DNA of 64,000 bases, taken from an uncultured Omnitrophica bacterium (GTDB taxonomy: Bacteria > Omnitrophota > Gorgyraeia > JACQQV01). The DNA is taken from positions 23,513-87,512 of the forward strand of contig CAMTXH010000013.1 of assembly GCA_947085655.1 (NCBI GenBank), read 5' to 3'. The notes beneath the pieces were generated by a model. That model searched no databases. It worked only from the letters and a program-made list of their open reading frames with translations, and had not been told where the DNA came from. Shown piece after piece: positions 1,834 through 26,200 of the stretch. Position 1 is the stretch's first letter; the number at the start of each line of letters is the position of its first letter. The translations under genes and the position numbers were made by a program.

Positions 1834-3573
1834 ATGAATATTTGCCTCAAGAAGGGGGATGACACGATGAAAGAGTTCGGGGAATCCCGCTATCCGGTGA
1901 CCGAGCGCCGATTGGTCTCGGACCTTATCCGGTACACCCTCGTCCAGAAAGAGGCGGAGGAGACCCTCAAAGCGCGCACTGAGCGGATCATCCGCCTTCA
2001 AACAGCCCTCCTCGGTCTTGCCAAGGAAAACTACACGACTCGAGAAGAGGCCTTCCGGAAAATCACGGAGACAGACGCCAAGACGCTTTCTGTGAAACGG
2101 GTCAGCATCTGGTTTTTCACAGAGGACCGCTCGGAGATTGTGTGCGAAGATCTCTATATCCTGGACCGCAACTCCCACGAAAAAGGGATCCGGCTCCAGG
2201 CCGAAAAATACCCCAACTATTTCAAGGCCCTCGAGGAATCCCGTACCGTTGCCGCGGATGACGCGCAACAGGATCCCCGGACAAGCGAATTTACCCTGGA
2301 TTATCTAAAACCTCTCGGGATCACCTCGATGATGGATGTGTCGATCTGGCATCAGGGGAAATTGGTCGGGATCGTCTGTCATGAGCATGTCGGGCCCAAA
2401 AGACAATGGCAGCCGGAGGAACAGGATTTTGTAGGATCCATTTCCGATATGGTCTCTCTCGCCTTGGAATCTTCCGAACGTCAATCGGCGGAGGAGCGGT
2501 TTCGGCTTATGGCCCAGGCGACAAATGATGCGGTGTGGGACTGGAACTTGGTGACGAACGGCGTCTGGTGGAATGAAGGAGTTCGCTCCCTGTTCGGATA
2601 TACAGAAGAGGAAATCGGGCCGGAGGCCACATGGTGGTATGAGCATATCCACCCCGAAGAGAAGGAGCGGGTCGTCGAAGGAATCCACCGCCTCATCGAA
2701 AGCGACGGGCGGTTCTGGTCGGATGAATACCGGTTCGCCCGCGCGGACGGAAGCTATGCGCATGTTTACGACCGCGGTTATGTCATCTGCGACGAAGAAA
2801 GAAAGCCGGTCCGGATGATCGGCGCGATGATGGACATCACCGAGCGGAAACTCCTTGAGAAAATGAAGGATGACCTTTTTCGGGATGCGGCTCATGAACT
2901 GAGGACCCCCTACGCCATGATTCAGATGGGACTGGACCTGATGGAAAGGGGATTCCGTCAGAATAACCGAAGAAAAATCTTCACCGGCAAAAAAATTATC
3001 GGCATCAATGTGGATCGGTTGGAGCATGACGTGGAAAATCTTCTCGACATTTTTAAACTCGAAGCGGGCGTCCAGCAGACAAAAGAGGAAACTTTGACGG
3101 TGGCCGCCAACGGCTTTTTCAAAGAAGCACTCCGGCTGTATCAGCCGCAGATTCAGGAGAAAAAACTGAAACTTGAATTGAAAATCCGGCGGGGACTTCC
3201 CCCCTTGAGGATCCCGCGAACCGACCTTCTGCGGGCGTTTCGGAATGTACTGGACAATGCCGTTAAATTCACCGACCGGGGATCCATCACGGTCTTTGTC
3301 CGCAAACAGGAAAATTTCGCGGCCATCCATGTTCAGGATACGGGAAGGGGAATCCGGAAAGAAGACCTTGGCCGCGTGTTTGAAAAATTCTTCAAGGCCT
3401 CTGCCGGTGTTCAGGGGGTGGGATTGGGTCTTCCCATTGCCAAGCTTCTCGTTGAAAAGGCGGGGGGAAGAATTGCGGTTCATTCGGGGGGACTCGGCCG
3501 TGGCACGGAGGTAACCCTTTTTGTCCCGCTTGCAGAGAGAAAATTGGTTGCCAAAGGGAGGGAAGCGGCATGA
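1834..3573 (+). CDS. Sensor histidine kinase (GAF - PAS - HisKA - HATPase_c)
   Basis: GAF-like N-terminal region; PAS (AVWDWNLVTNGVWWNEG...); H-box HELRTPY; G-boxes DTGRGI and GLGLPIAK. An alternative ATG lies at 1864. The stop overlaps the downstream regulator gene (ATGA). Confidence 0.85.
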   Translation: MNICLKKGDDTMKEFGESRYPVTERRLVSDLIRYTLVQKEAEETLKARTERIIRLQTALLGLAKENYTTREEAFRKITETDAKTLSVKRVSIWFFTEDRSEIVCEDLYILDRNSHEKGIRLQAEKYPNYFKALEESRTVAADDAQQDPRTSEFTLDYLKPLGITSMMDVSIWHQGKLVGIVCHEHVGPKRQWQPEEQDFVGSISDMVSLALESSERQSAEERFRLMAQATNDAVWDWNLVTNGVWWNEGVRSLFGYTEEEIGPEATWWYEHIHPEEKERVVEGIHRLIESDGRFWSDEYRFARADGSYAHVYDRGYVICDEERKPVRMIGAMMDITERKLLEKMKDDLFRDAAHELRTPYAMIQMGLDLMERGFRQNNRRKIFTGKKIIGINVDRLEHDVENLLDIFKLEAGVQQTKEETLTVAANGFFKEALRLYQPQIQEKKLKLELKIRRGLPPLRIPRTDLLRAFRNVLDNAVKFTDRGSITVFVRKQENFAAIHVQDTGRGIRKEDLGRVFEKFFKASAGVQGVGLGLPIAKLLVEKAGGRIAVHSGGLGRGTEVTLFVPLAERKLVAKGREAA

Positions 3574-3941
3574 AAAAGGAAATCTTGGTCGTCGAAGACG
3601 ATCCCCAAATGCATGATATTTACCGCGACATGCTCGGGGAGCAACAGTTTAATCTGACCGTCACCGATGAGCCGCTTCGGGCCCTTCAGATGATTCAACG
3701 GAAGGAGAAGCGCTTTGATTTGATTCTCCTGGATATCCTCATGAAGGAGAGTCTTCTGGACGGGAGGGTCTTTTTTGTGCAGCTCCGGGAGGCGCTTCAG
3801 GATAAAACCCCGGTGATTGTCGTCAGTGTCTTGAACGAGGATCAGGTGGGTGATTTGAAACAGATTAACAATATCTCTTTCCTCCATAAACCGATCAAAC
3901 GCCAGGAACTCCTTTCGGAAATCCGCAAAACGCTCTTTTGA
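3570..3941 (+). CDS. Single-domain response regulator (CheY-like receiver)
   Basis: ILVVEDDP...DLILLDILM receiver motifs; 4-nt overlap with the kinase stop indicates an operon. Confidence 0.85.
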   Translation: MKKEILVVEDDPQMHDIYRDMLGEQQFNLTVTDEPLRALQMIQRKEKRFDLILLDILMKESLLDGRVFFVQLREALQDKTPVIVVSVLNEDQVGDLKQINNISFLHKPIKRQELLSEIRKTLF

Positions 3942-4001
3942 ATTGACAGAGCCAAAGAAGCCGGGGTATAATGAAGCAACTTTTTTTGAAAGGAGTCATC
4001 C

Positions 4002-4442
4002 TTGGCAAAGGACAAACAGGGTTTTCTCACCGATATCAAAGAACTCCGGCGAAGGGCAAGAAAACACATTTATAAGCGGCACTACTTCATGGCCCAGGGG
4101 ATTCATGCCGAACCGGTTGCCCAGGAATTTCTCCAGCATGCCAATGACGAACAAACCCATGCGGACCAGATCGCAGCCCGGATTACCCAACTGGGGGGAG
4201 AGCCGGATTTCAGCCCGGAGGGATTGACGACCGGAAGCCATGCCGAATACGCCGAAGGGGATTCCTTGATTGATAGGGTGAAGGAAGACCTGGTTGCGGA
4301 GCGGATTGCGATTGACTCCTACGGAGAGAAGGATCCCACCACGCGCCGGATGCTCGAAGGGATTCCCGCCATGGAGGAAGAGCATGCGGACGACCTTGCC
4401 AATATCCTCTCAACGCTTGACCCGCGAAAAACCCCCTCTTGA
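4002..4442 (+). CDS. Ferritin-like di-iron protein (bacterioferritin/Dps superfamily)
   Basis: E-x-x-H di-iron ligand pattern (FLQHANDEQTHADQIAARI...EEEHADDLANIL) of the ferritin-like four-helix bundle; TTG start. Confidence 0.55.
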   Translation: MAKDKQGFLTDIKELRRRARKHIYKRHYFMAQGIHAEPVAQEFLQHANDEQTHADQIAARITQLGGEPDFSPEGLTTGSHAEYAEGDSLIDRVKEDLVAERIAIDSYGEKDPTTRRMLEGIPAMEEEHADDLANILSTLDPRKTPS

Positions 4443-4470
4443 TCCGAAGGCCTATCTCGGAACCCGGACG

Positions 4471-5718
4471 ATGATCGAGTTTATTGAGCACCTTGGAGAA
4501 AAGATAGACGCCTCATGGGGAAAGAAGGGGTACGCCCTGGAGGCCTTTTCGCAGATTGCTTTTCAAACCCTTCAGCAGGCCGGACTGCATAGGGTATTTA
4601 CGGTCGAAAAACTTCTGGATTCCCTCTGGACGAAGAAGGACCTTCCCAAACAGCTTTCCCTATTTAACGGATTCGGACAGCCCCCCATTACGCTCTATCG
4701 CAATCAGCAACACAACTTTCTGATCGATCTTTATTTCTGGATTCAGCCCGAAATCTCCATCCACTCACACGGGTTTCGGGGCGCGTTTACAGTCCTGGAG
4801 GGTAGGAGCTTCCAGTGCCGGTACGATTTTTCCATCCGTGATAACCTCGAAAATACCATTTTATTCGGTGACCTGACGCTTCGGGATACGACACTCCTTC
4901 ATCCGGGGGATGTTCAGGAGATTTTGGCCGGACCGTCCTATATTCATCAGGTCTGGCATCTCAGTTTTCCGACCCTCTCGCTGGCGGTCCGTACCCTTGA
5001 ACCACAACAGACCCAGTACGTCTATTTGAGGCCCCATATGGCCTTCTTGGCCCGTTCGAACGCGATGTCTTTGACAGAAGAGAATACAGCCTATTTCCCT
5101 CTTCCAAGTAAAAAGATCGATACCCTCGTCTGTTTGAACGCGACCCGGTATCCGCTAGAGGGCCGCAGCCCCCGCGCATGGCTGAAAGCGTTGATTGCAG
5201 AAACCCCTCCCCACGAAGGGTTTCTTCATCTCATAAAGTATTATGACCTCACCCGCGATATCGAGGCGATTCAGGATGTTCTAAACAGTGCCCCATCACT
5301 CGGAAAGTGGGCTCCGGAATTTCTCGCCACCTTGAGCCGGATGCATGGGGTGCAGATCAAGTGGACCCAGATCCGGGAGGAGGGGGAGCGGTTTCTCCTG
5401 GCGCTTCTTTTCTCCCTTGAAGAACAAAGTGATATCATGCGGTTGGTTCGGGCCTACAACCCTGCGGAAGCACCCGAGGCCCTCATCGTCAAGTGGTTGG
5501 CCGGTCTGATGCACCGTCGGGATGTGAATATTCAGATGAATCATACCGCGCTCACAGTCCTGGAACGGTTCCTTTACGGCGATTCCGAGGAGGAAGTTTG
5601 CAGACATCTTTCCCGGATCTACAAGGGGACGGATCCGCAAATCTTAAAGGAAGATGTCCGACAGATCCGGGATCGACTCCGTTCCGACGGACTGCTGAAG
5701 GCATTACAAAAAGGTTGA
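4471..5718 (+). CDS. Hypothetical protein with an N-terminal cupin-like domain
   Basis: The ORF-track ORF (4294) overlaps the ferritin-like gene; the first in-frame ATG after that gene's stop is at 4471 (MIEFIEHLGEK). It carries a cupin-like H-x-H...E motif (IHSHGFRGAFTVLEG) and a second His-containing motif (IHQVWH). Confidence 0.5.
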   Translation: MIEFIEHLGEKIDASWGKKGYALEAFSQIAFQTLQQAGLHRVFTVEKLLDSLWTKKDLPKQLSLFNGFGQPPITLYRNQQHNFLIDLYFWIQPEISIHSHGFRGAFTVLEGRSFQCRYDFSIRDNLENTILFGDLTLRDTTLLHPGDVQEILAGPSYIHQVWHLSFPTLSLAVRTLEPQQTQYVYLRPHMAFLARSNAMSLTEENTAYFPLPSKKIDTLVCLNATRYPLEGRSPRAWLKALIAETPPHEGFLHLIKYYDLTRDIEAIQDVLNSAPSLGKWAPEFLATLSRMHGVQIKWTQIREEGERFLLALLFSLEEQSDIMRLVRAYNPAEAPEALIVKWLAGLMHRRDVNIQMNHTALTVLERFLYGDSEEEVCRHLSRIYKGTDPQILKEDVRQIRDRLRSDGLLKALQKG

Positions 5719-5816
5719 GCGAATACCCATCAGGAATTATTCAAAAATCTTTCGTTCCGGCCCTTATTTTGTTCGGTTCCGCCTTGGGTATGGCGCTGAC
5801 GTTTGCGGGGGAAGGC

Positions 5817-6350
5817 ATGAAGAAAGAGGATCTCGGAAAAGCGACTTTTGCCGGCGGATGCTTCTGGTGTATGCAGCCGCCGTATGATGAACTGGAGGGC
5901 GTCGTTTCCACGACGGTCGGCTATACCGGGGGAGCCAAGAAAAATCCGACCTATGAGGAGGTCTCTTCCGGCACCACCGGGCATGCGGAGGCGGTGGAAA
6001 TCACCTACGACCCCTCAAAGATTTCCTACGAGGCGTTATTGGAGGCCTTCTGGAAAAATATCGACCCCACCACCCAGAACCGGCAGTTCGCCGACATCGG
6101 GACGCAGTACCGGACCGCCATCTTTTATCATGATGAAGAACAGAAGCGGCTCGCGCTCGCCTCAAAGGAAGGATTGGAGAAGTCCGGAAAATTCAAAGGC
6201 CCCATTGTCACCGAAATCGTTCCCGCCTCCGTCTTTTACCCTGCCGAGGACTATCACCAGGATTACTACAAGAAATGTCCCGTCCCCTACAACCTTTATA
6301 AAGTCGGTTCGGGAAGAGCGCAGTTTTTGAAAAAACAGTGGGGGAAATGA
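5817..6350 (+). CDS. msrA: Peptide-methionine (S)-S-oxide reductase MsrA
   Basis: GCFWC active-site motif. The protein is near-collinear with short MsrA proteins of the MSEKKEIATFAGGCFWC type, including TGHAEAV, QF-DIG, YR-AIFY and DYHQ-YY motifs. The ORF-track start (5493) overlaps the upstream gene; ATG at 5817 (MKKEDLGKATFAGGCFWC) is preferred, with ATG at 5790 as an alternative. Confidence 0.9.
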   Translation: MKKEDLGKATFAGGCFWCMQPPYDELEGVVSTTVGYTGGAKKNPTYEEVSSGTTGHAEAVEITYDPSKISYEALLEAFWKNIDPTTQNRQFADIGTQYRTAIFYHDEEQKRLALASKEGLEKSGKFKGPIVTEIVPASVFYPAEDYHQDYYKKCPVPYNLYKVGSGRAQFLKKQWGK

Positions 6351-6658
6351 TGTCTGTCGAGAAATGGGAGCCGAAGAAGGACGGGCCATTTTCGGAAAAG
6401 GCCCTTCGCCGGAAACTGGAATCCCGCGGATATCAAGTTTATCAGTATACGTATCCGCCGGGAACCGTTTTTCCGAATCATACGCATGGGATCGACAAAA
6501 TCGATGGGGTGGTCTCCGGCCGCTTCCGGATGAAGATGAAGGGACTGGATGTCATCCTGGAGGCGGGGGATTGTCTGGCGGTGCCGCGCGGTACGGTCCA
6601 TTACGCAGAAGTGGTGGGGGATGAACCGGTCGTCAGTCTGGATGCGACCCGGGAATGA
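6338..6658 (+). CDS. Cupin-domain protein (cupin_2)
   Basis: PGTVFPNHTHGIDKIDGVVSG...GDCLAVPRGTVHYAE cupin motifs. Its start is coupled to the msrA stop (ATGGGGGAAATGATG; alternative ATG at 6347). Confidence 0.65.
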   Translation: MGEMMSVEKWEPKKDGPFSEKALRRKLESRGYQVYQYTYPPGTVFPNHTHGIDKIDGVVSGRFRMKMKGLDVILEAGDCLAVPRGTVHYAEVVGDEPVVSLDATRE

Positions 6659-7545
6659 GCCGGGCTACGCTCATTTATAATCCGGTTGCCGGAGATCCGC
6701 AAGGCAATCTTCTCCAAAAGGTCCGGCATGTTCTTGAAGAAGAGGGAATCTCCCATCTCTTTAAACCGACCCGTGAAGCGCGGGAGGGAACCCGGCTTGC
6801 CAAAGAGGCGGCTCAAGAGGGAAGTGACCTTGTGATTGCCGCCGGCGGGGACGGCACAGTGAATGAAGTGGTGAACGGTCTCGTCGGGACCGAGGCGATA
6901 CTCGGCATCATTCCGATGGGAACCGGGAACCTTGCCGCTTATGAATTCGGCGTTCCCCTTGATCCGTTGGAGGCGGCTCGCGCCATTCCGAAAAGCCGGG
7001 TTGAACGGATTGACGTCGGAAAGGCGAACGACCGTTATTTTTTGATGATGACAAGTGTCGGTCTGGACGCCAAAGCCCTTCGGGATGCCCCCCGCTGGGG
7101 ATACAGGGCGCTTCACTGGTGGGCTTTTTTTTGGACCGGGTTTCTCAATCTTTTTGTGACAAGGCCGTTTCCCCTCCGGCTTCAGACCGCACAGAGGGAG
7201 ATGGCCTATACGACCCGCCTTCTGGTTGTTTCCAACATTAAAGGATACGGCCTTCCGGGATGCGAATTTCTTTCGAATGCGGATACCGCCGACGGATTTT
7301 TGGATGTCGGTTTTTTCAAATCGGAGAATCTTTGGTGTTACCTTCGGGGACTTTCCGCTCTCGGGCGGCGCAGGCCGATATCGCCGCATCTCGTCCAGCG
7401 AGGCCGGGTGGAAAAAGTCCGGATTGCGGCGGATATCCCGGTCCCGGCACAAGTCGACGGCGATTTCTACGGCTACACACCGCTTGAGGTTTCTGTGGTT
7501 CCAAAGGCCCTTTCCATTTTAATTCCCCAGAAAGATGTTCCGTAA
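6655..7545 (+). CDS. Diacylglycerol-kinase-family lipid kinase (YegS/BmrU-like, DAGK_cat)
   Basis: [10 protein letters not shown]...[19 protein letters not shown]...[11 protein letters not shown] motif set. Confidence 0.8.
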
Positions 7546-8275
7546 GATTGTCGTCCTGACCGGCGCCGGGATTTCGGCCGAATCCGGCATCAAAACATTC
7601 CGGGATGCCGGAGGGCTTTGGGAGAATTACCGGATTGAAGATGTGGCGACCCCCGAAGGATACGCGCGGAATCCGGAACTTGTCCTCAATTTTTATAATG
7701 AAAGGCGGAGACATCTTCTCGGGGGAACGATCCGGCCGAATCCGGGGCATTTGGCGCTTGCAGAACTTGAGAAAAATTTCCCGGGGGGATTTCTCCTTGT
7801 CACCCAGAACGTGGATAACCTTCACGAACAGGCCGGAAGCCGGAATGTTCTACATATGCACGGGGAGCTTCTAAAAGTCCGGTGTGCCCGGTCAGGGAAG
7901 GTATTTCCGGCGGAGGAAGACGTTCACACGGAGGATCGTTGTCCCTGCTGCAACCTGGCCGGCGCCTTGAGGCCCCATGTCGTCTGGTTCGGGGAGATCC
8001 CGCTTGAGATGAACCGGATTTTCGAAGCCCTGAGCCGTTGTGACCTTTTCATCTCGGTTGGCACCTCAGGCGTTGTCTATCCGGCGGCCGGGTTTGTGCA
8101 GGTGGCGCGGGAGGCAGGGGCGCATACGGTGGAATTGAATCTTGAACCCTCCGCAGTTCAGTCCCTTTTTGCCGAAAAAATCTACGGTCCGGCGAGCCGA
8201 GCGGTCCCGGAATACGTTCAGAAATTTTTTGCCAACAAGCACCACGTCGCAGACGAGACCTCCGAAAAGGCGTAA
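7535..8275 (+). CDS. cobB: NAD-dependent protein deacylase (sirtuin, Sir2/CobB family)
   Basis: [26 protein letters not shown], Zn ribbon C-x2-C...C-x-C (CARSG...CPCC), and [12 protein letters not shown]. Confidence 0.85.
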
Positions 8276-8310
8276 ATTCCTCTTCGAGATGGCTTTGATG
8301 AAAGTCCCCC

Positions 8311-8339
8311 TTGCACTCATGATGACATCCTTGTATAAT
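8311..8339 (+). promoter_or_regulatory. Sigma70-type promoter, TTGCAC-17 nt-TATAAT, upstream of the yceI/DUF2282 operon
   Basis: Near-consensus hexamers with an exact 17-nt spacer, about 70 nt upstream of the yceI-like ATG at 8411. Confidence 0.5.
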
Positions 8340-8410
8340 ATCATTCCGTCCTGAAACCTTTGGGTTTTTCCCGCATCTATACCAGCAGAACAAGAAGGGC
8401 GGTGTTTCTC

Positions 8411-8998
8411 ATGCGTCGTGTTGGCTGGATGTCTGCTTTGCTCCTATTGTACTTATTGGTTTCTCCCCTTTGGGCGGCCACCTATAAAGTGGATCCCCAC
8501 CATACGACCGTCGGTTTCAAAATCCGCCATCTTTTTTCATGGGTGCACGGCACGTTTAACGAATTTGAGGGAACCATTGAATATGAACCGGCAAAACCGG
8601 AAAGTTGGTCCGCCTCGGGCACCATTCAGGCGGCCAGTATTGATACGCGGGTTGCCCCGCGGGATAAACACCTTCGCTCCGGTGATTTCTTCGATGTGGA
8701 GAAGTATCCGACGATTGACTTCCGGACAACCCGGATCGATGATGTCGGCGCCAACAAGGCCAAGCTGCACGGCTTTCTCACGATTCACGGTGTTGAAAAA
8801 GAGGTGGAGTTGGATGTGGAAGTCCTCGGAATTGCCAACGATCCATGGGGAAACACCGTGGCGGGATTTTCCGCCACGACCACCTTTGACCGTCGGGACT
8901 TTGGATTGACATGGAATGAGACGTTGGAGACCGGAAGTGTCCTCGTAGGGAACGAGGTTCAGATCACCCTCGACATCTCCGCGCTCCTTCAAAAGTAA
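8411..8998 (+). CDS. YceI-family periplasmic (polyisoprenoid-binding-like) protein
   Basis: Signal peptide MRRVGWMSALLLLYLLVSPLWAATYKV, then YceI motifs (HTTVGFKIRHL, HGTFNEFEGTIEY, YPTIDFRTT). The ORF-track start at 8360 has no RBS; ATG at 8411 is preceded by GAAGGG. Confidence 0.8.
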   Translation: MRRVGWMSALLLLYLLVSPLWAATYKVDPHHTTVGFKIRHLFSWVHGTFNEFEGTIEYEPAKPESWSASGTIQAASIDTRVAPRDKHLRSGDFFDVEKYPTIDFRTTRIDDVGANKAKLHGFLTIHGVEKEVELDVEVLGIANDPWGNTVAGFSATTTFDRRDFGLTWNETLETGSVLVGNEVQITLDISALLQK

Positions 8999-9008
8999 GA
9001 TAAAGGAG

Positions 9009-9311
9009 GTGAACATGGCGTCGGTGAAACCAAAACGGAACAAAAGACAAACGCTGGTGGCCGCGTCTGTCGCGGGCCTTCTCGCTTTGGCGGCTGTCCC
9101 CGGCATGGTGCAGGGGCATCTGGAAGCGGCCGAGGAAGGGAAGACGAAGTGTTACGGCGTCAACAAGTGTAAGGGCACCGGTGACTGCGGTGGAAAGGGT
9201 CATTCCTGTGCAGGACTGAATGCCTGTCAGGGGCAGGCGTGGATTTATCTTCAGGAAAAGGACTGCCTTCGGATCCAGGGCGGGCGCTTGACTCCCGAAG
9301 AAGAAGGATAA
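9009..9311 (+). CDS. DUF2282-family secreted Cys-rich small protein (bufferin BufA-like RiPP precursor candidate)
   Basis: Sec signal peptide (LVAASVAGLLALAAVPGMVQG), then KCYGVNKCKGTGDCGG-HSCAG-NACQGQAW...DC, matching the conserved Cys-containing DUF2282 core as I recall it. An AAGGAGG RBS lies 7 nt upstream. Its stop codon overlaps the downstream ATG (TAATG). Confidence 0.7.
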   Translation: MNMASVKPKRNKRQTLVAASVAGLLALAAVPGMVQGHLEAAEEGKTKCYGVNKCKGTGDCGGKGHSCAGLNACQGQAWIYLQEKDCLRIQGGRLTPEEEG

Positions 9312-11002
9312 TGTGGCCTCTTCTCGGGTGCGGGGTCGGTCTTCGGACGGATCATTATGACCTGATTACCCGCGAATGGCCCGGGATGGACTGGTTTGAG
9401 GCTGTCTCCGAGAATTTTATTGATTCTGGGGGACGGCCTCTTTCTGTTTTGGAGAAGGTCCGGGCCCGTTATCCGGTGGCCCTCCACGGCGTCTCTCTTT
9501 CCATCGGTTCGGCCGATCCGCTGGATGAAACATATCTCAAAAAATTAAAAACGCTTGCGGATCGGATCGAACCGGTCTTGGTAACGGACCACCTTTGTTG
9601 GAACGGTGTAGCGGGGGAGTGCCTGCACGATCTTCTGCCCCTTCCATTTACGGAAGAGGCGATCCGGCATGTGGTACGGCGGGTCCAAAAGGTCCAGGGG
9701 TTTCTTGGCCGGCGGATTCTCCTTGAAAATATCTCCACTTACATTACGTACAAACATTCGGAGATGCCGGAATGGGTTTTTCTTTCGGAAATTGCCCGCC
9801 GTTCCGGATGCGGCATCCTTCTTGATTTGAACAACCTCTATGTCAATTCCGTCAATCACCGTTTCGAGCCGGAGGAAACCCTCCGGAATATTCCGGGAGA
9901 ATTCGTCGGACAGTTCCATCTGGCCGGGCATACCGACAAGGGAAAATACCTTTTTGATACCCATAATAGCCGTGTGATCGAGCCGGTCTGGGAGTTGTAC
10001 CGGAAGGCCCTTTGTCAGTGGGGGGCGGTGGCTACCCTGATTGAATGGGACGAGGCGATCCCCGATTTTCCAGGTCTTTCGGAGGAGTCGAAAAAAGCGC
10101 GGGCGATTTATGAGGAAGTGACGAAAGGCAAAAAAGATGCTTTAGAAGCAGCTCCTTCCCAAAAACCGGTCATCCGCCCCCGGCCGCCGGAGGGGCCAGA
10201 TCTTGCAACGCTTCAGTGTTGGATGAAATCCCAGATTCGGCCGAGCGGCGGTGGGAAAGAAACTTTTTCCGAATCTCCCCTGAATCCGCAGGGGGGAGAC
10301 CCGGGAATAGTCCGGATGGAGGTGTACGCATCCGGGTATCTGGCGAGGATGAAAGAAGCGCTTGAAGAGGTTTATGAGGCGGTGCACCACCTGACGGGCG
10401 AGGGGGTCTTTTCACGCCTTGCAACCGACTACGCGAAACAATTTCCCTCCCGGCATTACAATTTAAGCGCGGCCGGGGTCCATTTCAGCCGTTTTTTGGA
10501 GATGGCGGAAATCACCGAAAAGCTTCCCTTTCTGCCGGATCTTGTACGGCTTGAGTGGAAGGTGAATCAGGCCTTTCACGCTTTTGAAAAACCGCCCCTC
10601 TCACCGGAGATCTTTCAATCCGTTCCGGAGGAAAAGTGGGATGACTTGGTTTTTGAGTTTCAACCCTCCGTCGGCATCGTCTCCTCCGGGTGGCCTATTC
10701 TGGACCTTTGGCAGGCGCGGAAAACTCCTCGCAAGGAAATCGATATCCAGGTCGTGGACCGCCCCCAGACAGTGCTTATTTTCCGGAAGGGTTTTCAGGT
10801 CCGGTGCGAAAATCTTGAAAGAGGAGAGGCCGCGCTTCTTGAGGGGCTTCTTGCCGGCCGAAGCCTCGGCGATGTCTGCGGTTCGCTTGCCGACTTTTCA
10901 AAAGATCTGTTGCCCGATCTCACCGGAACTTTCCGCAATTGGATGCAAAAAGGCCTTCTGATATGTTACAATGCAGGTAGGATTGGGCACGATGCAAAAT
11001 AG
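9311..11002 (+). CDS. Fused DUF692 (MbnB/BufB-like TIM-barrel di-iron enzyme) and DUF2063 (MbnC/BufC-like) protein
   Basis: The N-terminal ~280 aa show DUF692 hallmarks (GVGLRTDHY, FEAVSENF, HGVSLSIGS, VTDHLCW, LLPLPFTEE, ILLENISTY, GCGILLDLNNLYVNS, FHLAGH). After a Pro-rich linker the C-terminal ~250 aa are DUF2063-like. It is one uninterrupted ORF. The ORF-track start (9239) overlaps bufA; ATG at 9311 (MWPLLGCGVGLRTDHY) is preferred. Confidence 0.75.
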   Translation: MWPLLGCGVGLRTDHYDLITREWPGMDWFEAVSENFIDSGGRPLSVLEKVRARYPVALHGVSLSIGSADPLDETYLKKLKTLADRIEPVLVTDHLCWNGVAGECLHDLLPLPFTEEAIRHVVRRVQKVQGFLGRRILLENISTYITYKHSEMPEWVFLSEIARRSGCGILLDLNNLYVNSVNHRFEPEETLRNIPGEFVGQFHLAGHTDKGKYLFDTHNSRVIEPVWELYRKALCQWGAVATLIEWDEAIPDFPGLSEESKKARAIYEEVTKGKKDALEAAPSQKPVIRPRPPEGPDLATLQCWMKSQIRPSGGGKETFSESPLNPQGGDPGIVRMEVYASGYLARMKEALEEVYEAVHHLTGEGVFSRLATDYAKQFPSRHYNLSAAGVHFSRFLEMAEITEKLPFLPDLVRLEWKVNQAFHAFEKPPLSPEIFQSVPEEKWDDLVFEFQPSVGIVSSGWPILDLWQARKTPRKEIDIQVVDRPQTVLIFRKGFQVRCENLERGEAALLEGLLAGRSLGDVCGSLADFSKDLLPDLTGTFRNWMQKGLLICYNAGRIGHDAK

Positions 11003-12464
11003 AGAATCACTGCAAGCCATTATCAGAGAAAGAGTCAGCAACGAGCTCTTTGTCGTTGTTTCAAACCGCGAACCCTATATCCATCAATTTAAAGGGGAGG
11101 AGATTGTCTGTCAGGAGGCGACCAGCGGACTGATCACCGCACTCGACCCGGTGATGCAGGCCTCAAGCGGTATCTGGATCGCGCACGGAAGCGGGGATGC
11201 GGATCAAAAGGTGGTCGATCAAAAAAATCATGTCCGGGTGCCGCCAGAAAACCCCTCTTACACCCTTCGCCGTGTCTGGCTCACCAAAGAAGAGGAGGAC
11301 GGCTACTATTACGGCTTTTCGAATGAAGCCCTCTGGCCCCTTTGCCATGTGGCCTATACCCGTCCGGTTTTTAACGATGCGGATTGGAAAACGTACTGTG
11401 CCGTCAATCAGAAATTTGCGGATGCGATTCTTGAAGAAGTGGGAAGCCGGAAGGCCTTTGTCTTTATCCAGGATTATCACTTCACGCAACTGGCGCGACT
11501 CCTCAAGCGGCCGAATATCCGGACCGCGCATTTCTGGCACATCCCCTGGCCGAATCCCGAGGTTTTCCGGATTTGCCCCTGGGCGACCGAAATCCTCGAC
11601 GGGCTTTTAGGAAACGACCTCCTCGGTTTCCACACGCGGCTTCACTGCCAAAATTTTCTGGACAATGTCTGGACGATGCTCAAGGCAAAGGTAGATTATG
11701 AGCGGTTTGAGATCAGCCGGGATGGAGCCACCACATCGGTCCGTCCCTTCCCGATCAGCATCGATTTTGAAGCGACCTCCGAGGACGCCCGGAGCGCCGA
11801 GGTGGAAACGGAGATGGAAAACCTCCGGAAAAAATACGGGCTTCGGAATATGTTGATCGGGCTCGGGGTGGACCGGGTTGACTATACGAAAGGGATTCCG
11901 GACCAATTCCGGGCGCTGGACCGGTTTCTGGAGCGGTATCCGGAGTATCAGGGGCGGGTGATGATGGTGGAAATCGGCGTTTCCAGCCGGGCGCGAATCC
12001 CGACGTATCAGAGAGTGAACGACGAAATCGACCAGATTGTGGAAGAGGTCAACTGGAAATATCAGAAGGGGGGATGGAAGCCGATTCTCTATCTGAAGGA
12101 AAGGGCTCCGGCGACAACACTGCACGCCTGGTACCGGCTGGCAAACTTCTGCGTGGTCAGTTCCCTGCACGATGGAATGAATCTGGTGGCCAAGGAGTAC
12201 GTTGCTTCCCGCAATCAGGAGGACGGCGTTCTTCTCCTCAGCCGCTTTACGGGGAGCGCCCGCGAACTGACCGACGCCATTTTGATTAATCCCTATGCCA
12301 TCGACCATATGGCGGAGGCCTACCGCGAAGCCCTGACCATGCCGCTGAAGGAGCAAAAAAATCGGATGCGGCAACTCCGCGCGCATGTGCAGGATCACAA
12401 TATCTACCGGTGGGCCGCTCAGGTCCTCTCATCCCTCTTTCAGTTTGAATTTGCGGAGAAATGA
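10992..12464 (+). CDS. otsA: Alpha,alpha-trehalose-phosphate synthase (GT20)
   Basis: GT20 motifs (VVSNREPY, GGL..AL, WIAHGSG, GFSNEALWPLCH, FIQDYHF, FFLHIPWP, HDGMNLVAKEY). An ATG at 10992 overlaps the bufBC stop (ATGCAAAATAG), indicating translational coupling; the ORF-track start is 10971. Confidence 0.85.
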   Translation: MQNRESLQAIIRERVSNELFVVVSNREPYIHQFKGEEIVCQEATSGLITALDPVMQASSGIWIAHGSGDADQKVVDQKNHVRVPPENPSYTLRRVWLTKEEEDGYYYGFSNEALWPLCHVAYTRPVFNDADWKTYCAVNQKFADAILEEVGSRKAFVFIQDYHFTQLARLLKRPNIRTAHFWHIPWPNPEVFRICPWATEILDGLLGNDLLGFHTRLHCQNFLDNVWTMLKAKVDYERFEISRDGATTSVRPFPISIDFEATSEDARSAEVETEMENLRKKYGLRNMLIGLGVDRVDYTKGIPDQFRALDRFLERYPEYQGRVMMVEIGVSSRARIPTYQRVNDEIDQIVEEVNWKYQKGGWKPILYLKERAPATTLHAWYRLANFCVVSSLHDGMNLVAKEYVASRNQEDGVLLLSRFTGSARELTDAILINPYAIDHMAEAYREALTMPLKEQKNRMRQLRAHVQDHNIYRWAAQVLSSLFQFEFAEK

Positions 12465-12467
12465 TTT

Positions 12468-13265
12468 TTGAAGCATCCCCCGAAATTTTTCCTTTTCGCC
12501 GATTATGACGGAACCCTCACCCCGATTGTCTCCCACGCCAAAAAAGCGCGCCTTTCCAAAAAATTACGGCGCCTTTTAAAAAAACTTTCCCGAAAGCCGG
12601 GATGCATCCTCGGGATTGTGAGCGGCCGCGCGCTCCCGGAACTGAAGCGCTTCGTCGGAGTCCCCGGCCTTGTCTATATCGGAAACCACGGATTTGAACT
12701 TGAGTCCAGCCGGTTTTCCTTCGTTCATCCTTCCGCACGCCGCGCACGCCCCCTCATGGAACGGATTGCCGATACCTTGGAGGAGTCTCTCAAAGAGTTC
12801 CGGGGGGCATGGGTGGAGCGGAAGGGATGGACGGTGAGCGTTCACTGGCGGGGCGTTTCTCCGCGGAAGCAAAGCCGTTGCCGGCGCCGGATTCTGGTCG
12901 CTGTGGCCTCCGCCCGCAGAGCGCACAAAATCCGTCTGACGCATGGGAAATGCGTCACAGAAATCCGTCCACCGGTCCTTTGGAATAAAGGGACGATGAT
13001 TGAATGGGCGGTGAAACGGCTTGCGGGAAGAAACAGGCGTTTTGGGTCATGTTATCTGGGGGATGACCGGACGGATGAAGATGCGTTCCGGGTCGTCAAT
13101 CGTCTCGGGGGGATTTCCATTTTTGTTGGAAAAGACAAGAAACATTCCCGGGCGTGTTATTCTTTGAAGAATCCCAACGACGTCCAAGTGTTTTTTAAGC
13201 ATCTTCTCGATGATTTACCCGTCGCCGAGGCCGTTTGTCAAGGCGGCGGCGTTCTGTTACCATAG
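12468..13265 (+). CDS. otsB: Trehalose-6-phosphate phosphatase (HAD-IIB)
   Basis: FLFADYDGTLTPIV (DxDGT HAD motif I); later motifs S/T and K-x(n)-GDD (YLGDDRTDEDAF); only a 3-nt gap after otsA. Confidence 0.8.
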   Translation: MKHPPKFFLFADYDGTLTPIVSHAKKARLSKKLRRLLKKLSRKPGCILGIVSGRALPELKRFVGVPGLVYIGNHGFELESSRFSFVHPSARRARPLMERIADTLEESLKEFRGAWVERKGWTVSVHWRGVSPRKQSRCRRRILVAVASARRAHKIRLTHGKCVTEIRPPVLWNKGTMIEWAVKRLAGRNRRFGSCYLGDDRTDEDAFRVVNRLGGISIFVGKDKKHSRACYSLKNPNDVQVFFKHLLDDLPVAEAVCQGGGVLLP

Positions 13266-13289
13266 AAGAAGCGGACGAGGAAGGAGCCT

Positions 13290-13691
13290 ATGACAGCGAA
13301 GGAAAGATTGCTGAATGTGGGGCTATTGTGGCTTCGGGTGCTGGTGGGACTCGGAATCGCATCCCACGGCTACCAGAAAATTTTCGGCGGGCAGTTGAGT
13401 TTGTTAATCAACAGCGTGACGGAAATGGGGTTTCCCCAGCCGGTCCTCCTTGGCTGGGCAGCGGCTCTCTCGGAATTTGCCGGAGGGATTCTGATCGTGC
13501 TCGGGCTTGGCACCCGTGTCGCCGCCTGCTTTGTCTTTGCCACGATGAGCGTTGCCGCATTTATCGCGCATGCTTCGGATCCTTTCCAAGTAAAGGAGTT
13601 GGCTCTCGCCTATTGGACGATGGCCGGCTTTTTGATTTTAAGCGGAGGAGGCATATTTTCGTTGGATGCGAAGTGCTTCCGGGAGGGATAA
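13290..13691 (+). CDS. DoxX-family membrane protein
   Basis: Four TM segments, WLRVLVGLGIASHGYQKIFGG, and an overall DoxX pattern. Confidence 0.8.
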   Translation: MTAKERLLNVGLLWLRVLVGLGIASHGYQKIFGGQLSLLINSVTEMGFPQPVLLGWAAALSEFAGGILIVLGLGTRVAACFVFATMSVAAFIAHASDPFQVKELALAYWTMAGFLILSGGGIFSLDAKCFREG

Positions 13692-13850
13692 ATGGTCGGC
13701 GTGATCATGGGGATCGTCGTATTGACGATGGTGGTCTTGGCTTTTACACTGGATCCGCAGGTCAAGCGCTGCGAACATTGCGAGGGTCCGGTCACGCTGA
13801 AGGAATTCTGGTCGCATTTTAAGAGGTGTTCTGAAACCAAAAAGAAATGA
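13692..13850 (+). CDS. Unannotated 52-aa micro-ORF: single TM helix plus C-x2-C...C cluster (MVGVIMGIVVLTMVVLAFTLDPQVKRCEHCEGPVTLKEFWSHFKRCSETKKK)
   Basis: An ATG sits immediately after the DoxX stop, and the ORF's TGA overlaps the sigma-factor ATG (ATGA), so it would be coupled on both sides. It is below the 60-aa cut-off of the ORF track. Confidence 0.4.
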   Translation: MVGVIMGIVVLTMVVLAFTLDPQVKRCEHCEGPVTLKEFWSHFKRCSETKKK

Positions 13851-14470
13851 ACCGCATCTCAACAGGAGACCAAGCACTGATTCGCCGGCTGAAAGTGCGT
13901 GACGAAACGGCGGTGGGGGAGCTCATGACCCAGTATCACGCGAAGGTGATGGGCCTCGCCCTCCGGCTCACCGGCAATCGTCAGGACGCGGAAGAAGTGC
14001 TCCAGGACGTTTTTTGGACGGTGGTTCAAAAAATCGGGGGCTTCCGGGAAGAGTCGAGTCTTTCCACTTGGATTTACAGGATTGCCACGAATGTCGCATT
14101 GATGAAACTCCGCAAACGCCCCAAAATCGAGGAACTTCCCCTTGACGAAGAACTCGGCCCCAAGATAACCGGAGAAGGGATGATTGCCGAGACGGTGACG
14201 GATTGGTCCAATCTTCCGGATGGTGCCGCATCCCGCAAGGAATGGATGCAGCATCTGGAGGAGGCGGTCCGGAGACTCCCTCCGGAATACCGGACTGTTT
14301 TTGTCCTTCGGGATGTGGAAGGACTCTCTGCCGAAGAAGCATGCAAGATCCTGAATCTTTCTATTCCGGCCCTGAAAAGCCGGCTGCACCGGGCGCGGCT
14401 TTTCCTTCGAAAGGAGATGGCGGATGTGGCGGAGACCCGGCCGATCGGAATGAGGTCACCCCATGCTTAA
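13847..14470 (+). CDS. ECF-type RNA polymerase sigma-70 factor
   Basis: Sigma70 region 2 (VLQDVFWTVVQKIGGFREESSLSTWIYRIATNVALMKLRKR) and region 4 (YRTVFVLRDVEGLSAEEACKILNLSIPALKSRLHRAR). Confidence 0.85.
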   Translation: MNRISTGDQALIRRLKVRDETAVGELMTQYHAKVMGLALRLTGNRQDAEEVLQDVFWTVVQKIGGFREESSLSTWIYRIATNVALMKLRKRPKIEELPLDEELGPKITGEGMIAETVTDWSNLPDGAASRKEWMQHLEEAVRRLPPEYRTVFVLRDVEGLSAEEACKILNLSIPALKSRLHRARLFLRKEMADVAETRPIGMRSPHA

Positions 14471-14750
14471 ATGCAGGGACATCAACGGATTGCTTCATGA
14501 TTATGCGGAAGGGCTCTTGGAGCTCTCCGTTCACAAAGAGCTGGACCGGCATCTTTCGGATTGCCCCGGCTGTCTCGCTTTTGTGAAGACCTATAAAGAA
14601 ACCATCCGCCTTTCGAAAGACCTTCGCACCGGGGAGATGCCTCCCGAACTTCAAGAGAAGCTCGAGAGTTTCCTCAAAGCCAAACTCGCTGAAAAACCCA
14701 AAACCCTCTGGGACCGGCTCCGCTCCCGCTTCGGCCGGGGCTGTTGTTAG
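14463..14750 (+). CDS. Anti-sigma factor, zf-HC2 type (soluble, ChrR/RsrA-like)
   Basis: H-x3-C-x2-C motif (HLSDCPGC); its start overlaps the sigma stop (ATGCTTAA). Confidence 0.7.
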   Translation: MLKCRDINGLLHDYAEGLLELSVHKELDRHLSDCPGCLAFVKTYKETIRLSKDLRTGEMPPELQEKLESFLKAKLAEKPKTLWDRLRSRFGRGCC

Positions 14751-14790
14751 AGTTTCCCTTGAGCCGGGGCCGTAAACGGCCTATAATGGA

Positions 14791-15876
14791 ATGGAGATGA
14801 ATAAAGAACTTTTTCAGGAATTTCTTGCAAAAGAAGTCTTCGGAAACACCGCTCAGGCCTACCTGGTCTCGCTCTGTGTCTTTTTCGGTTTCCTGGTGGG
14901 ACTCCGGATCTTCAAGGTGATGGTGATTCACCGGCTCCGCCAATATGCCAAGACCACGACCAGCGATATTGACGATTTCCTCGTCCAACTTCTTGACCAG
15001 ATCAGTCCCCTTGTCTATTTTTTCCTGCCGCTTTACGTAGCAACCCGCTCCCTGACTCTGAATCAGAGTCTTGCAGGCATTCTCCATACCGCTTTTGTGA
15101 TTGTCCTCACCGTCAAAGCCATTCATGTCCTCCAGGCGGTCTCCACCTTTTTCCTGAACCGGTGGGCTTCTAAAACCGAGGAAGACGACCTGACCAATGC
15201 GATGGTGGTCCGGAATGTGAGCAAGGTGCTGAACATCGTCCTTTGGGTCGTCGGCATTATCTTCATCTTGGACAACGTCGGTGTGAATATCGCCTCGATC
15301 GTTGCGGGCCTTGGGGTCGGCGGGATCGCGGTGGCGCTTGCCGCCCAGTCCATCCTGGGGGATGCCTTCAGCGGGTTTCTGATTTTTGTGGACAAGCCCT
15401 TCAAGGCGGGGGATTTTATCATCGTCGGGGATCTTCTCGGGACAGTGGAGCATATCGGTTTCAAGACGACCCGGATCCGGAGTCTTCACGGAGAGCAGCT
15501 GATTTTCTCCAATACCGATTTGACCTCCAGCCGGATCCGAAACTACAAGCGGATGGAGACCCGCCGGATCCTCTTCAAAATCGGGGTGATCTACCAGACG
15601 CCGCTCGAAAAACTTAAGACAATCCCAAAAATGATTGAAAACATTGTCCAGGAAAACAAACTGGCCAAGTTCGACCGGGCCCATTTCCAGAGTTACGGCG
15701 ATTTCGCCCTGATTTACGAAATCGTCTATTACGTGCTGACGGCGGACTACAATCAATACATGGATGTCCAGCATTTCATCAATGTCCGGATCAAGGAGGA
15801 GTTCGAAAAGGCGGGAATCGAATTTGCCTACCCGACCCAACAACTTTTTGTCACCCAGGTGGGATCGCCTCAGTGA
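14791..15876 (+). CDS. Small-conductance mechanosensitive channel (MscS family)
   Basis: TM region followed by the MscS beta-domain (AGDFIIVGDLLGTVEHIGFKTTRIRSLHGEQLIFSNTDL). Confidence 0.85.
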   Translation: MEMNKELFQEFLAKEVFGNTAQAYLVSLCVFFGFLVGLRIFKVMVIHRLRQYAKTTTSDIDDFLVQLLDQISPLVYFFLPLYVATRSLTLNQSLAGILHTAFVIVLTVKAIHVLQAVSTFFLNRWASKTEEDDLTNAMVVRNVSKVLNIVLWVVGIIFILDNVGVNIASIVAGLGVGGIAVALAAQSILGDAFSGFLIFVDKPFKAGDFIIVGDLLGTVEHIGFKTTRIRSLHGEQLIFSNTDLTSSRIRNYKRMETRRILFKIGVIYQTPLEKLKTIPKMIENIVQENKLAKFDRAHFQSYGDFALIYEIVYYVLTADYNQYMDVQHFINVRIKEEFEKAGIEFAYPTQQLFVTQVGSPQ

Positions 15877-17552
15877 GTCTCTTCTGGGTTGCGATTCTGG
15901 CCTTGGGCCTTTTTGTCGCGGCCTATTTCCTTTACGGCCGTCTCGTTTCCCGGCTATTCGAGTTATCTCCCGAAAGAACCACCCCCGCCCACCAGATGCG
16001 CGACGGAATGGACTATGTTCCGGCGAAAGCGCCCCTCCTTTTGGGTCAGCACTTTTCCGCCATTGCGGCCGCAGGCCCGATTGTCGGGCCGATTTTGGCG
16101 GGACTTTGGTTCGGGTGGCTTCCGGCGCTTCTCTGGATCGTCCTCGGAGCCATTTTTTTCGGGGCGGTGCATGATTTCTCAAGTCTCGTCGGTTCCATCC
16201 GGCATCAGGCCCGCTCCATCGTGGAGATTGTGCGGGATCACCTCGGGCGGAGAGCGCACCTCTTTTTCATGGGATTTGTGTGGCTTTCGTTGGTCTATGT
16301 CATCATCGCCTTTACCGATTTAACCAGCAGTTCCTTTGCGGGGGTCGGATACGGCGGAGGGATTGCGACGTCGTCGCTCTTGTATCTTTTCGTCGCGGTG
16401 GCGATGGGGATCGCCCTCTATCGGTTCCGGATGCCGCTTTGGGTTGCGACACTCCTCTTTGTTCCTGTCGTCGGTGGCGTCATCTGGTTCGGACAGAAAG
16501 TGCCGATCGTTCTTCCTGAGGGGGGAGCGATCCGGCCGCAACTGGTATGGAACGGGATCATCCTCTCGTATTGTTTTATTGCCTCCATTATTCCGATGTG
16601 GATTCTCCTTCAGCCCCGCGGATACCTCGGCGGTTTTTTTCTTTATATTACTTTGGCCGGCGGCGTCGTCGGCCTTTTTTTGGGAGGGGATACCATTCAG
16701 TACCCCGCTTTTCTCGGATGGACGAGCCAGCGGGGATTTCCGCTCTTCCCGATGCTCTTTGTGACAGTGGCCTGCGGTGCCTGTTCCGGATTCCACGGGA
16801 TTGTCTCTTCCGGCACCACCTCCAAACAGATCGACGGGGAGCCGGACTGCCGTCTGGTCGGATACGGCGGGATGCTTCTTGAGGGACTGGTGGCGGTCAT
16901 TGCCCTTGCCACCGTGATGGTGCTTGCGCCGGGCGATCCGTTGACCCGGCAGTCCCCGGATCGGATTTATGCCAGCGGCCTCAGTCACTTTGTAGAGCGA
17001 TTCGGCATCCACCGCGAATTTGCCATGGCCTTTGTCCTTTTGGCCTTTGCCACCTTTATCTATGACACGCTCGATGTGGCGACCCGGCTGGGCCGCTATC
17101 TTTTTCAGGAACTGACCGGATGGAAGGGGAGAAGCGGCAGAATCGGCGCAACGCTCTGCACCCTGGCGCTTCCCGCCTTTTGCGTGAGTCTGACGGTCAA
17201 AGATTCCTCCGGCAACATCATTCCCGCCTGGAAAATCTTCTGGACAATTTTCGGAACTTCCAACCAGCTCCTTGCAGCCCTGACGCTCCTCACGGTCACG
17301 GTCTGGCTCAAGCGGAGCGGGAAACCTTGGTGGATCAGTGCCGTCCCGGCTTGCTTCATGCTGACGATGACGCTCTGGTCGCTTCTGTTTCTGATGTGGC
17401 CGTGGCTTTCCACTGTTGTTCAAGAAGGGCGGTGGACGGTCGACTGGGTCGCCCTGATCGCCTTTGTCCTCTTTGGTCTTGCGCTTTTAGTCATGATCGA
17501 AGCGCTCAAGACCTTTTCGCATCTCATTCCCTCCTCCCGCCCCGCTCCTTAA
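15873..17552 (+). CDS. cstA: Carbon starvation protein A (CstA peptide/pyruvate transporter family)
   Basis: DYVPAKAPLLLGQHFSAIAAAGPIVGPILA... matches the E. coli CstA N-terminus closely, and the protein is polytopic. Confidence 0.85.
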   Translation: MSLFWVAILALGLFVAAYFLYGRLVSRLFELSPERTTPAHQMRDGMDYVPAKAPLLLGQHFSAIAAAGPIVGPILAGLWFGWLPALLWIVLGAIFFGAVHDFSSLVGSIRHQARSIVEIVRDHLGRRAHLFFMGFVWLSLVYVIIAFTDLTSSSFAGVGYGGGIATSSLLYLFVAVAMGIALYRFRMPLWVATLLFVPVVGGVIWFGQKVPIVLPEGGAIRPQLVWNGIILSYCFIASIIPMWILLQPRGYLGGFFLYITLAGGVVGLFLGGDTIQYPAFLGWTSQRGFPLFPMLFVTVACGACSGFHGIVSSGTTSKQIDGEPDCRLVGYGGMLLEGLVAVIALATVMVLAPGDPLTRQSPDRIYASGLSHFVERFGIHREFAMAFVLLAFATFIYDTLDVATRLGRYLFQELTGWKGRSGRIGATLCTLALPAFCVSLTVKDSSGNIIPAWKIFWTIFGTSNQLLAALTLLTVTVWLKRSGKPWWISAVPACFMLTMTLWSLLFLMWPWLSTVVQEGRWTVDWVALIAFVLFGLALLVMIEALKTFSHLIPSSRPAP

Positions 17553-26134: not shown

Positions 26135-26200
26135 CTTTCCATTGACCCTTTTCCATTTGCTGCTAAAATAAGAGGAAACCCGCATCCAAAAAAGGGAAAG

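Follow-up and report, generated by a model that had tools for sequence, protein, structure and literature searches.

An overlap between bufBC and otsA in a compact Omnitrophota genome: probable lineage-specific seam of a bufferin module and a trehalose module

The stretch of DNA considered here (64,000 nt of contig CAMTXH010000013.1 from an uncultured Omnitrophica bacterium, hereafter the window) carries a same-strand gene pair in which bufBC, encoding the maturase of a bufferin-type ribosomally synthesised and post-translationally modified peptide (RiPP), overlaps the start of otsA, the gene of a trehalose-6-phosphate synthase, which is in turn followed by the phosphatase gene otsB. The pair is best explained, with a probability of about 0.7, as a lineage-specific meeting of two modules, each independent of the other, in a compact genome, in which the promoter, the Shine-Dalgarno (SD) motif and the initiation codon of otsA lie inside a dispensable tail of bufBC. 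One module would be a Buf2-type cluster, yceI-bufA2-bufBC, which ends at bufBC in related genomes, and the other the block otsA-otsB-doxX…mscS, which stands behind amylase genes in the closest relative; the overlap would be the seam between two modules that are adjacent only in this lineage. The closest named homologues of the proteins of this lineage are those of Candidatus Omnitrophota. The overlap as such is an ordinary feature of a tightly packed genome.

At the junction, read directly as ...ggcacgATGCAAAATAGagaatc (in a longer stretch, cacgATGCAAAATAGag), the bufBC stop codon TAG occupies positions 11000-11002 and the otsA ATG positions 10992-10994 in a different frame, which gives an 11-nt overlap, ATGCAAAATAG (10992..11002, plus strand). 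A second in-frame ATG upstream, at 10971, is chosen by some gene callers and would result in an overlap of 32 nt and a product of 497 residues. This start is ruled out by the N-termini of 40 close OtsA homologues, which read M-x-(W)T-[KR]-ESL and place 2 or 3 residues ahead of the conserved '[KR]ESL…VVSNREPY' block; for example, the window has MQNRESL where a homologue has MQTRESL. The closest OtsA homologue, encoded on a contig designated L001, aligns from its own residue 1 to window position 10992. Since both the homologue N-termini and this alignment begin there, ATG 10992 is the best start of otsA. The otsA stop codon (12462-12464) is separated by 3 nt from the TTG with which otsB begins at 12468. 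A preliminary description of the window had named the three genes and had given both the 11-nt overlap and the 3-nt gap; all of these are confirmed, the overlap by direct reading and by the homologue N-termini, the identities of bufBC and otsB by matches to Pfam and NCBIfam models, and that of otsA by its Pfam match, its NCBIfam scores lying below the equivalog cut-offs.

The source of the window is a metagenome-assembled genome (MAG), and an artefact of assembly or binning, that is, a chimeric contig, would be a trivial explanation of the junction. It is effectively refuted, as the 5,025 bp from yceI to doxX, which run across the junction, are 100% identical in one NCBI assembly (MAG GCA_964374045.1, contig CAYJWX010000001.1) and in three independent Logan assemblies made from different sequencing runs. 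A junction that is identical in four independent assemblies is therefore real.

The pairing of the two genes was sought in two samples. The sample of buf loci comprised 87 loci encoding BufBC relatives, 7 of them from representative genomes (single-protein search) and 80 from metagenomes (search with a 44-sequence profile), and was searched with the proteins of the window. In 66 of these buf loci the sequence extends 300 nt or more downstream past bufBC, and in 50 it extends 1.5 kb or more; neither otsA nor otsB was present in any of them. The downstream neighbours vary among relatives. For example, yceI-bufA-bufBC is followed by DUF4912 and GH57 genes in locus L100 and by a DUF6941 gene, overlapping the bufBC stop by 4 nt, in locus L101. 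This variation implies that the buf module ends at bufBC. Likewise, the closest OtsA homologues (66-71% identity) are encoded in six distinct neighbourhoods, all of which have otsA paired with otsB and none of which has buf genes. The genes upstream of otsA in these six encode an amylase-family protein, a fatty-acid desaturase, a hypothetical protein, an Fe-S assembly protein, a Na+/H+ exchanger (with a 4-nt overlap) and a NUDIX hydrolase. The adjacency is thus absent from all other buf loci and otsA neighbourhoods examined, so that the comparison yields no evidence of a regulon that is shared and under selection. The stress response that had been proposed to be shared by trehalose synthesis and the peptide machinery is, with these counts, not borne out. 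No bufferin paper mentioning trehalose was found, in a term search that was blurred by the word 'buffering.'

The origin of the downstream block is indicated by the L001 contig, which carries no buf genes. Its order is amylase, amylase, otsA (71% identity), otsB, a CLC gene on the other strand, doxX (68%), greA, a pirin gene, a hypothetical gene and mscS (68-69%), and the synteny otsA-otsB-doxX…mscS that it shares with the window starts exactly at 10992. The two also share the details of the otsA/otsB junction, where the TTG start of otsB lies 3 nt after the otsA stop (stop-TTT-TTG) with a GGAG inside the otsA 3' end (GGAGAAATGATTTTTG at 12462-12470 of the window versus GGAGAAATAGTTTTTG at 6086-6094 of L001). 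Because of this synteny with a contig free of buf genes, mscS and, probably, doxX are assigned to the trehalose/osmotic block instead of the bufferin cluster. A search of the window for the amylase genes that stand ahead of otsA in L001 gave none, and hence the history of the rearrangement is beyond reconstruction from the window alone.

The part of bufBC that covers the otsA start is poorly conserved. The last 12 codons (CYNAGRIGHDAK) form a non-conserved tail, the sequence being variable after 'GL[IL]', and the protein runs 24 residues beyond a conserved Trp against a median of 23 in its homologues. A lengthening of bufBC through the loss of a stop codon is ruled out by this typical tail length. 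As the tail is normal in length and variable in sequence, the overlap lies in an unconstrained tail and not in an abnormal extension.

The Cys-Tyr-Asn codons of this tail contain TGTTACAAT, an extended -10 element (TGn plus five of the six positions of TATAAT) that ends 19 nt ahead of the ATG of otsA. Matches to the pattern TGNTANAAT number 13 in the window where 3.48 are expected (about 4-fold), and none of 100 dinucleotide-preserving shuffles reached that number. Seven of the 13 matches are sense-oriented and lie 6-65 nt upstream of gene starts, although such start-proximal zones make up 3.8% of the sequence and 0.13 chance matches would be expected there (binomial P 1.5e-7, or 2.2e-6 when the otsA site is excluded). 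In L001, TGGTAAAAT stands 12 nt before the otsA ATG, within a 60-nt intergenic spacer, and the ots block therefore probably had an extended -10 promoter immediately ahead of otsA ancestrally. The view that the junction left no room for an independent promoter is mistaken in principle and probably also in this case, given a predicted element of an enriched, start-proximal motif class with an analogue in L001. A consensus scan similarly predicts promoters inside the upstream genes before doxX (13235-13263), before the gene of an extracytoplasmic function (ECF) sigma factor (13722-13750) and before mscS (14759-14787; TTGAGC, 17-nt spacer, TATAAT, 10 of 12 positions). The otsA element resembles the promoters found inside the 3' ends of upstream genes in compact bacterial genomes, in that a -10-type element lies in upstream coding sequence directly before the downstream start; it differs from them in being a prediction and in its unusually short leader of ~12 nt. 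Promoters may thus hide in the variable C-terminal codons of an upstream gene.

Other extended -10 sites of the pattern TGNTANAAT occur in the window at 26161, 31784 (minus strand), 59572 (minus strand), 59596, 61227, 14759-14787 and 20993, and many of them end 6-31 nt before start codons. One such motif overlaps the called ATG of an acetyl-CoA synthetase gene at 21000. These positions suggest one of two things, namely frequent use by this organism of messenger RNAs with very short leaders or none, or miscalling of some starts.

The preliminary description had offered a different model, in which otsA and otsB lack a promoter of their own, are transcribed only within the buf operon, are translationally coupled to it through the 11-nt overlap and are obligatorily co-expressed with it under copper, oxidative or osmotic stress. 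Several observations agree with this model. The overlap is real and on one strand, the longest gap between yceI and cstA is 40 nt, and stress genes cluster in the neighbourhood. No terminator-like site was detected on the plus strand from 9900 to 12600, and thus none between bufBC and otsA. From termination at 11002 to the otsA ATG the distance is only 8 nt, which falls in the measured reinitiation range of ~20 nt (PMC10666635). The pair bufBC/otsA is like the termination-reinitiation pairs of Huber et al. (2019, 2023; PMC6728339, PMC10666635) in being co-directional and in having the start codon inside the upstream open reading frame (ORF), and among overlapping co-directional pairs, -11 in phase 1 ranks with the commoner classes of long overlap (PMC6728339, PMC10666635).

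Nevertheless, the model is unlikely. Besides the predicted promoter and its equivalent in a relative without buf genes, otsA has an SD of its own (AGGA with 9-nt spacing, many neighbouring genes carrying ribosome sites of the same GGAG/AGGA type) and an unstructured start region. The RNA over 10930-11050 (121 nt) folds no better than shuffled sequence (z = +0.99), which rules out a hairpin that would mask the otsA ribosome-binding site and force coupling, and an Rfam scan of the window gave no match, hence no riboswitch or leader RNA at the junction. With its own SD and an open start, otsA shows no feature that would tie its initiation to ribosomes arriving from bufBC. Among 1,695 species surveyed, coupled pairs gather at overlaps of 4, 1 and 8 nt, within a range of -8 to +6, and tend toward conserved neighbours encoding subunits of one complex; 11-nt overlaps fall into the rarer class called 'long, phase 1' (PMC10666635). 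A typical coupled pair overlaps by 4 or 1 nt, keeps its synteny in many species and often serves one complex; none of this is true of bufBC/otsA, whose overlap is outside the -8 to +6 range, whose neighbourhood is not conserved and whose products are not subunits of one complex. The same 11-nt overlap is shared by a functionally unrelated pair nearby, the DAGK-like and SIR2 (CobB) genes (7535-7545), and is of the same class. Overlaps occur at 9 of the 20 same-strand junctions of the array (two of 1 nt, four of 4, one of 8 and two of 11), those with unrelated neighbours being frequent along it, and that of bufBC/otsA is statistically unremarkable for this genome. Translational coupling of otsA to bufBC is hence not supported. 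As to the claim that otsAB would be co-expressed with the peptide machinery, read-through is possible at a junction free of a terminator, but obligatory co-expression finds no support beside a predicted promoter proper to otsA.

Another explanation extends the bufferin cluster itself. In bufA-bufBC-[otsA-otsB]-doxX(bufD)-ECF sigma/anti-sigma, otsAB would have been inserted into a longer cluster, and trehalose would be an accessory of the metallophore under the control of the cluster's ECF sigma factor. DoxX and ECF sigma/anti-sigma proteins are recognised components of bufferin clusters (PMC12452194, PMC11626156) and are encoded here just downstream of otsB, and a published rule that admits genes at most 10 bp from a cluster gene would count otsA in. 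However, the precursor is of the BufA2 type, and Buf2-type clusters are reported without DoxX and sigma/anti-sigma genes, extra genes in bufferin clusters being rare (PMC11626156, PMC12452194). The closest yceI-bufA-bufBC loci have neither a DoxX nor a sigma gene, and DoxX genes occur in only 4 of the 66 related buf loci. The DoxX protein of the window, encoded two genes downstream, is 68% identical to the one behind otsAB in L001 as against ~36% to those encoded near buf genes, it scores below the HvfX cut-off (55.6 versus 80), and the anti-sigma factor is of the zf-HC2 type, not NrsF. This explanation is very improbable. The overlap has some value for methods in this respect. The rule used in the published survey of MNIO clusters, by which a gene within 10 bp of a cluster gene is part of the biosynthetic gene cluster, would wrongly draw otsA into a bufferin cluster in compact genomes. 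A related possibility is that the juxtaposition has since been co-opted, the 11-gene gap-free array yceI-bufA-bufBC-otsA-otsB-doxX-orf52-ECF sigma-anti-sigma-mscS-cstA being one envelope-stress operon, possibly autoregulated by its ECF factor. One induction would then bring up a copper-buffering periplasmic RiPP along with trehalose in the cytoplasm, a DoxX oxidoreductase and a mechanosensitive channel, and compatible solutes would be tied to metal stress in a way that has not been described for bufferins. The proposal is distinctly unlikely.

Under the favoured reading, a juxtaposition of independent modules, the bufBC frame would run through its unconstrained tail over the otsA -10 element, ribosome-binding site and start codon to a stop 8 nt past the ATG. 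Transcription of otsAB would most likely start mainly from the extended -10 promoter at 10964-10972, with a leader of ~12 nt, and the SD and ATG used in translating otsA would be its own. Transcripts reading through from the yceI/buf promoter may come in addition, and ribosomes may to some extent be handed over at the overlap, though neither would be required. The overlap, the gene identities, the module boundaries, the unconserved adjacency and the enrichment and position of the motif are observations; that the promoter is active, that the transcripts have this form and that no functional link exists are inferences. Several points weigh against this reading. The ancestral region upstream of otsA is seen in only one close relative, L001. 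The otsA promoter is a prediction at the level of a consensus, in a phylum whose promoters are uncharacterised, and its -35 region is weak (3 of 6 positions). A transcription start site ~7 nt past the -10 element would make the leader so short that the SD lies at its extreme 5' end. The lack of a terminator between bufBC and otsA makes a polycistronic messenger RNA from yceI to otsB, or longer, plausible, and the wealth of stress genes around (msrA, ferritin, yceI, buf, otsAB, doxX, ECF sigma, mscS, cstA) is compatible with loose co-regulation. If the juxtaposition is what it appears to be, the overlap is one more functionally unrelated adjacent pair in a compact genome and in itself matters little, with no evidence for a part of trehalose in the bufferin system.

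The features of the junction and of the flanking modules are listed in Table 1.

Table 1. Features of the yceI-to-cstA part of the window
Feature	Coordinates	Strand	Basis or remark
Predicted sigma-70 promoter of the yceI-buf module (TTGCAC, 16-nt spacer, TATAAT)	8312..8339	+	read by eye; prediction, passed over by the consensus promoter scan (-35 hexamer with 3 of 6 positions)
yceI, periplasmic YceI-like protein	8411..8998	+	Pfam YceI, E 6e-50
bufA, bufferin-type RiPP precursor with signal peptide and six-Cys core	9015..9311	+	PF10048, NCBIfam BufA2
bufBC, MNIO maturase (BufB) fused to DUF2063/RRE partner (BufC)	9311..11002	+	PF05114, PF09836, NCBIfam MNIO_BufB
Extended -10 promoter-like element TGTTACAAT	10964..10972	+	motif enrichment; prediction
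Shine-Dalgarno-like AGGTAGGA	10975..10982	+	sequence; AGGA ends 9 nt before otsA ATG
otsA, GT20 trehalose-6-phosphate synthase	10992..12464	+	PF00982, E 1.5e-125
otsB, trehalose-6-phosphate phosphatase, TTG start	12468..13265	+	PF02358, E 9.5e-48; TIGR00685
doxX	13290..13691	+	PF07681; placed with the ots block by synteny
ECF sigma factor gene	13847..14470	+	Pfam/NCBIfam; not in L001 at that position
zf-HC2 anti-sigma factor gene	14463..14750	+	Pfam/NCBIfam; not in L001 at that position
mscS, mechanosensitive channel, end of the L001-syntenic block	14791..15876	+	Pfam; own predicted promoter 14759-14787
cstA	15873..17552	+	

These features belong to a long co-directional array on the plus strand in the order msrA, cupin, DAGK, SIR2, yceI, bufA, bufBC, otsA, otsB, doxX, a 52-residue ORF, ECF sigma, anti-sigma, mscS and cstA. 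A gap of 135 nt between SIR2 and yceI is the only sizeable one upstream. The small ORF at 13692-13850 begins directly behind the stop codon of doxX, carries a strong GGGAGGGA site and a 4-nt overlap with the sigma factor gene, has no family match and is called in one of four assemblies. From ~3400 to 17552, stress genes crowd on one strand (ferritin-like, msrA, cupin, yceI, bufferin, otsAB, doxX, ECF sigma/anti-sigma, mscS and cstA), and upstream of this run are a fatty-acid desaturase gene and a GAF/PAS histidine kinase gene with a response regulator.

OtsA is 60-71% identical to hundreds of annotated trehalose-6-phosphate synthases and matches the Pfam GT20 model over its full length. Its best NCBIfam matches are to trehalose-phosphate synthases, with scores below the equivalog cut-offs (TIGR02400, 441 versus 565), the glucosylglycerol-phosphate synthase model scoring lower (309). 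OtsB reaches 172.2 bits on TIGR00685 against a cut-off of 68. The pair is like the known OtsAB operon in that a HAD-IIB trehalose phosphatase comes directly behind a GT20 synthase; genes of mechanosensitive channels stand nearby, as they do in related genomes. It differs in that its OtsA represents a divergent clade, as the sub-equivalog scores show, and in that its predicted upstream regulatory signals are embedded in an unrelated preceding gene. The block also lacks the DUF5752 and TreT-like genes that stand behind otsB in five of the six OtsA neighbourhoods. Those neighbourhoods (L002-L004, L096-L099) have otsA-otsB followed in five of six cases by a DUF5752 gene and a TreT-like GT4 glycosyltransferase gene, often together with MscS-like channels, and some of them also have fatty-acid desaturase and MsrA genes nearby.

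The upstream module has the constituents of a Buf2-type bufferin cluster, namely a precursor recognised by a BufA model and bearing a Sec signal peptide, a BufB-type MNIO enzyme, and a DUF2063 partner with a RiPP recognition element (RRE). The precursor scores 64.4 bits on NCBIfam Cu_RiPP_BufA2 (cut-off 60) and 30.3 on PF10048, the DUF2282/BufA1 family (cut-off 22.4), and its translated sequence begins with a hydrophobic stretch and has a core with six Cys. As a bufferin, the product would be expected to have Cys converted to 5-thiooxazole and to bind copper. As it passes both Pfam 'BufA1' and NCBIfam 'BufA2,' the two naming schemes conflict for this protein. In BufBC, the MNIO domain (DUF692; MbnB/TglH/ChrH) matches PF05114 with E 7e-104 and NCBIfam MNIO_BufB with 359.3 bits (cut-off 310), and the DUF2063 domain matches PF09836 with E 3.5e-14 and 53.3 bits (cut-off 27.2) over residues 325-420, in an ORF numbered from GTG 9239. 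The bufferin literature treats BufB and BufC as separate partner proteins (PMC11626156, PMC12452194); here they form one polypeptide of 563 residues, for which at least 120 fused homologues exist at 50-58% identity, many of them in Candidatus Omnitrophota MAGs.

The gene yceI adjoins bufA/bufBC in 19 of the 56 related loci that have 1 kb or more of upstream DNA, the closest ones all among them, and in L100 and L101. Loci with this neighbour are L007, L012, L014-L016, L019, L022, L024, L025, L028, L029, L031, L032, L035, L059, L065, L070, L100 and L101. Three loci have the permuted order bufBC-bufA-yceI, in which yceI is kept. YceI is not mentioned in two bufferin papers (PMC11626156, PMC12452194), and no paper pairing 'YceI' with 'DUF692' was found in the literature searched. 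YceI may serve this bufferin subfamily as an accessory component not described before, and the yceI-bufA2-bufBC(fused) module, widespread in Omnitrophota-like MAGs, is the more useful by-product of the analysis. Compared with the cluster bufA2-bufB2-bufC2 of Caulobacter vibrioides (PMC11626156, PMC12452194), the module is alike in its six-Cys Sec precursor, its MNIO maturase and its DUF2063/RRE partner, and also in that no cluster-specific DoxX or NrsF gene is evident; it differs by the BufB-BufC fusion, the conserved upstream YceI gene and the 11-nt abutment with otsAB.

Among the related buf loci, L017 has mscS and two msrA genes upstream of its own bufBC. In the window, a 9-bp GC-rich hairpin followed by a T-rich stretch, with a terminator-like score, lies at 9220-9240 inside the 3' part of bufA, ~70 nt ahead of bufBC. 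It might serve attenuation between precursor and maturase, as in some RiPP operons.

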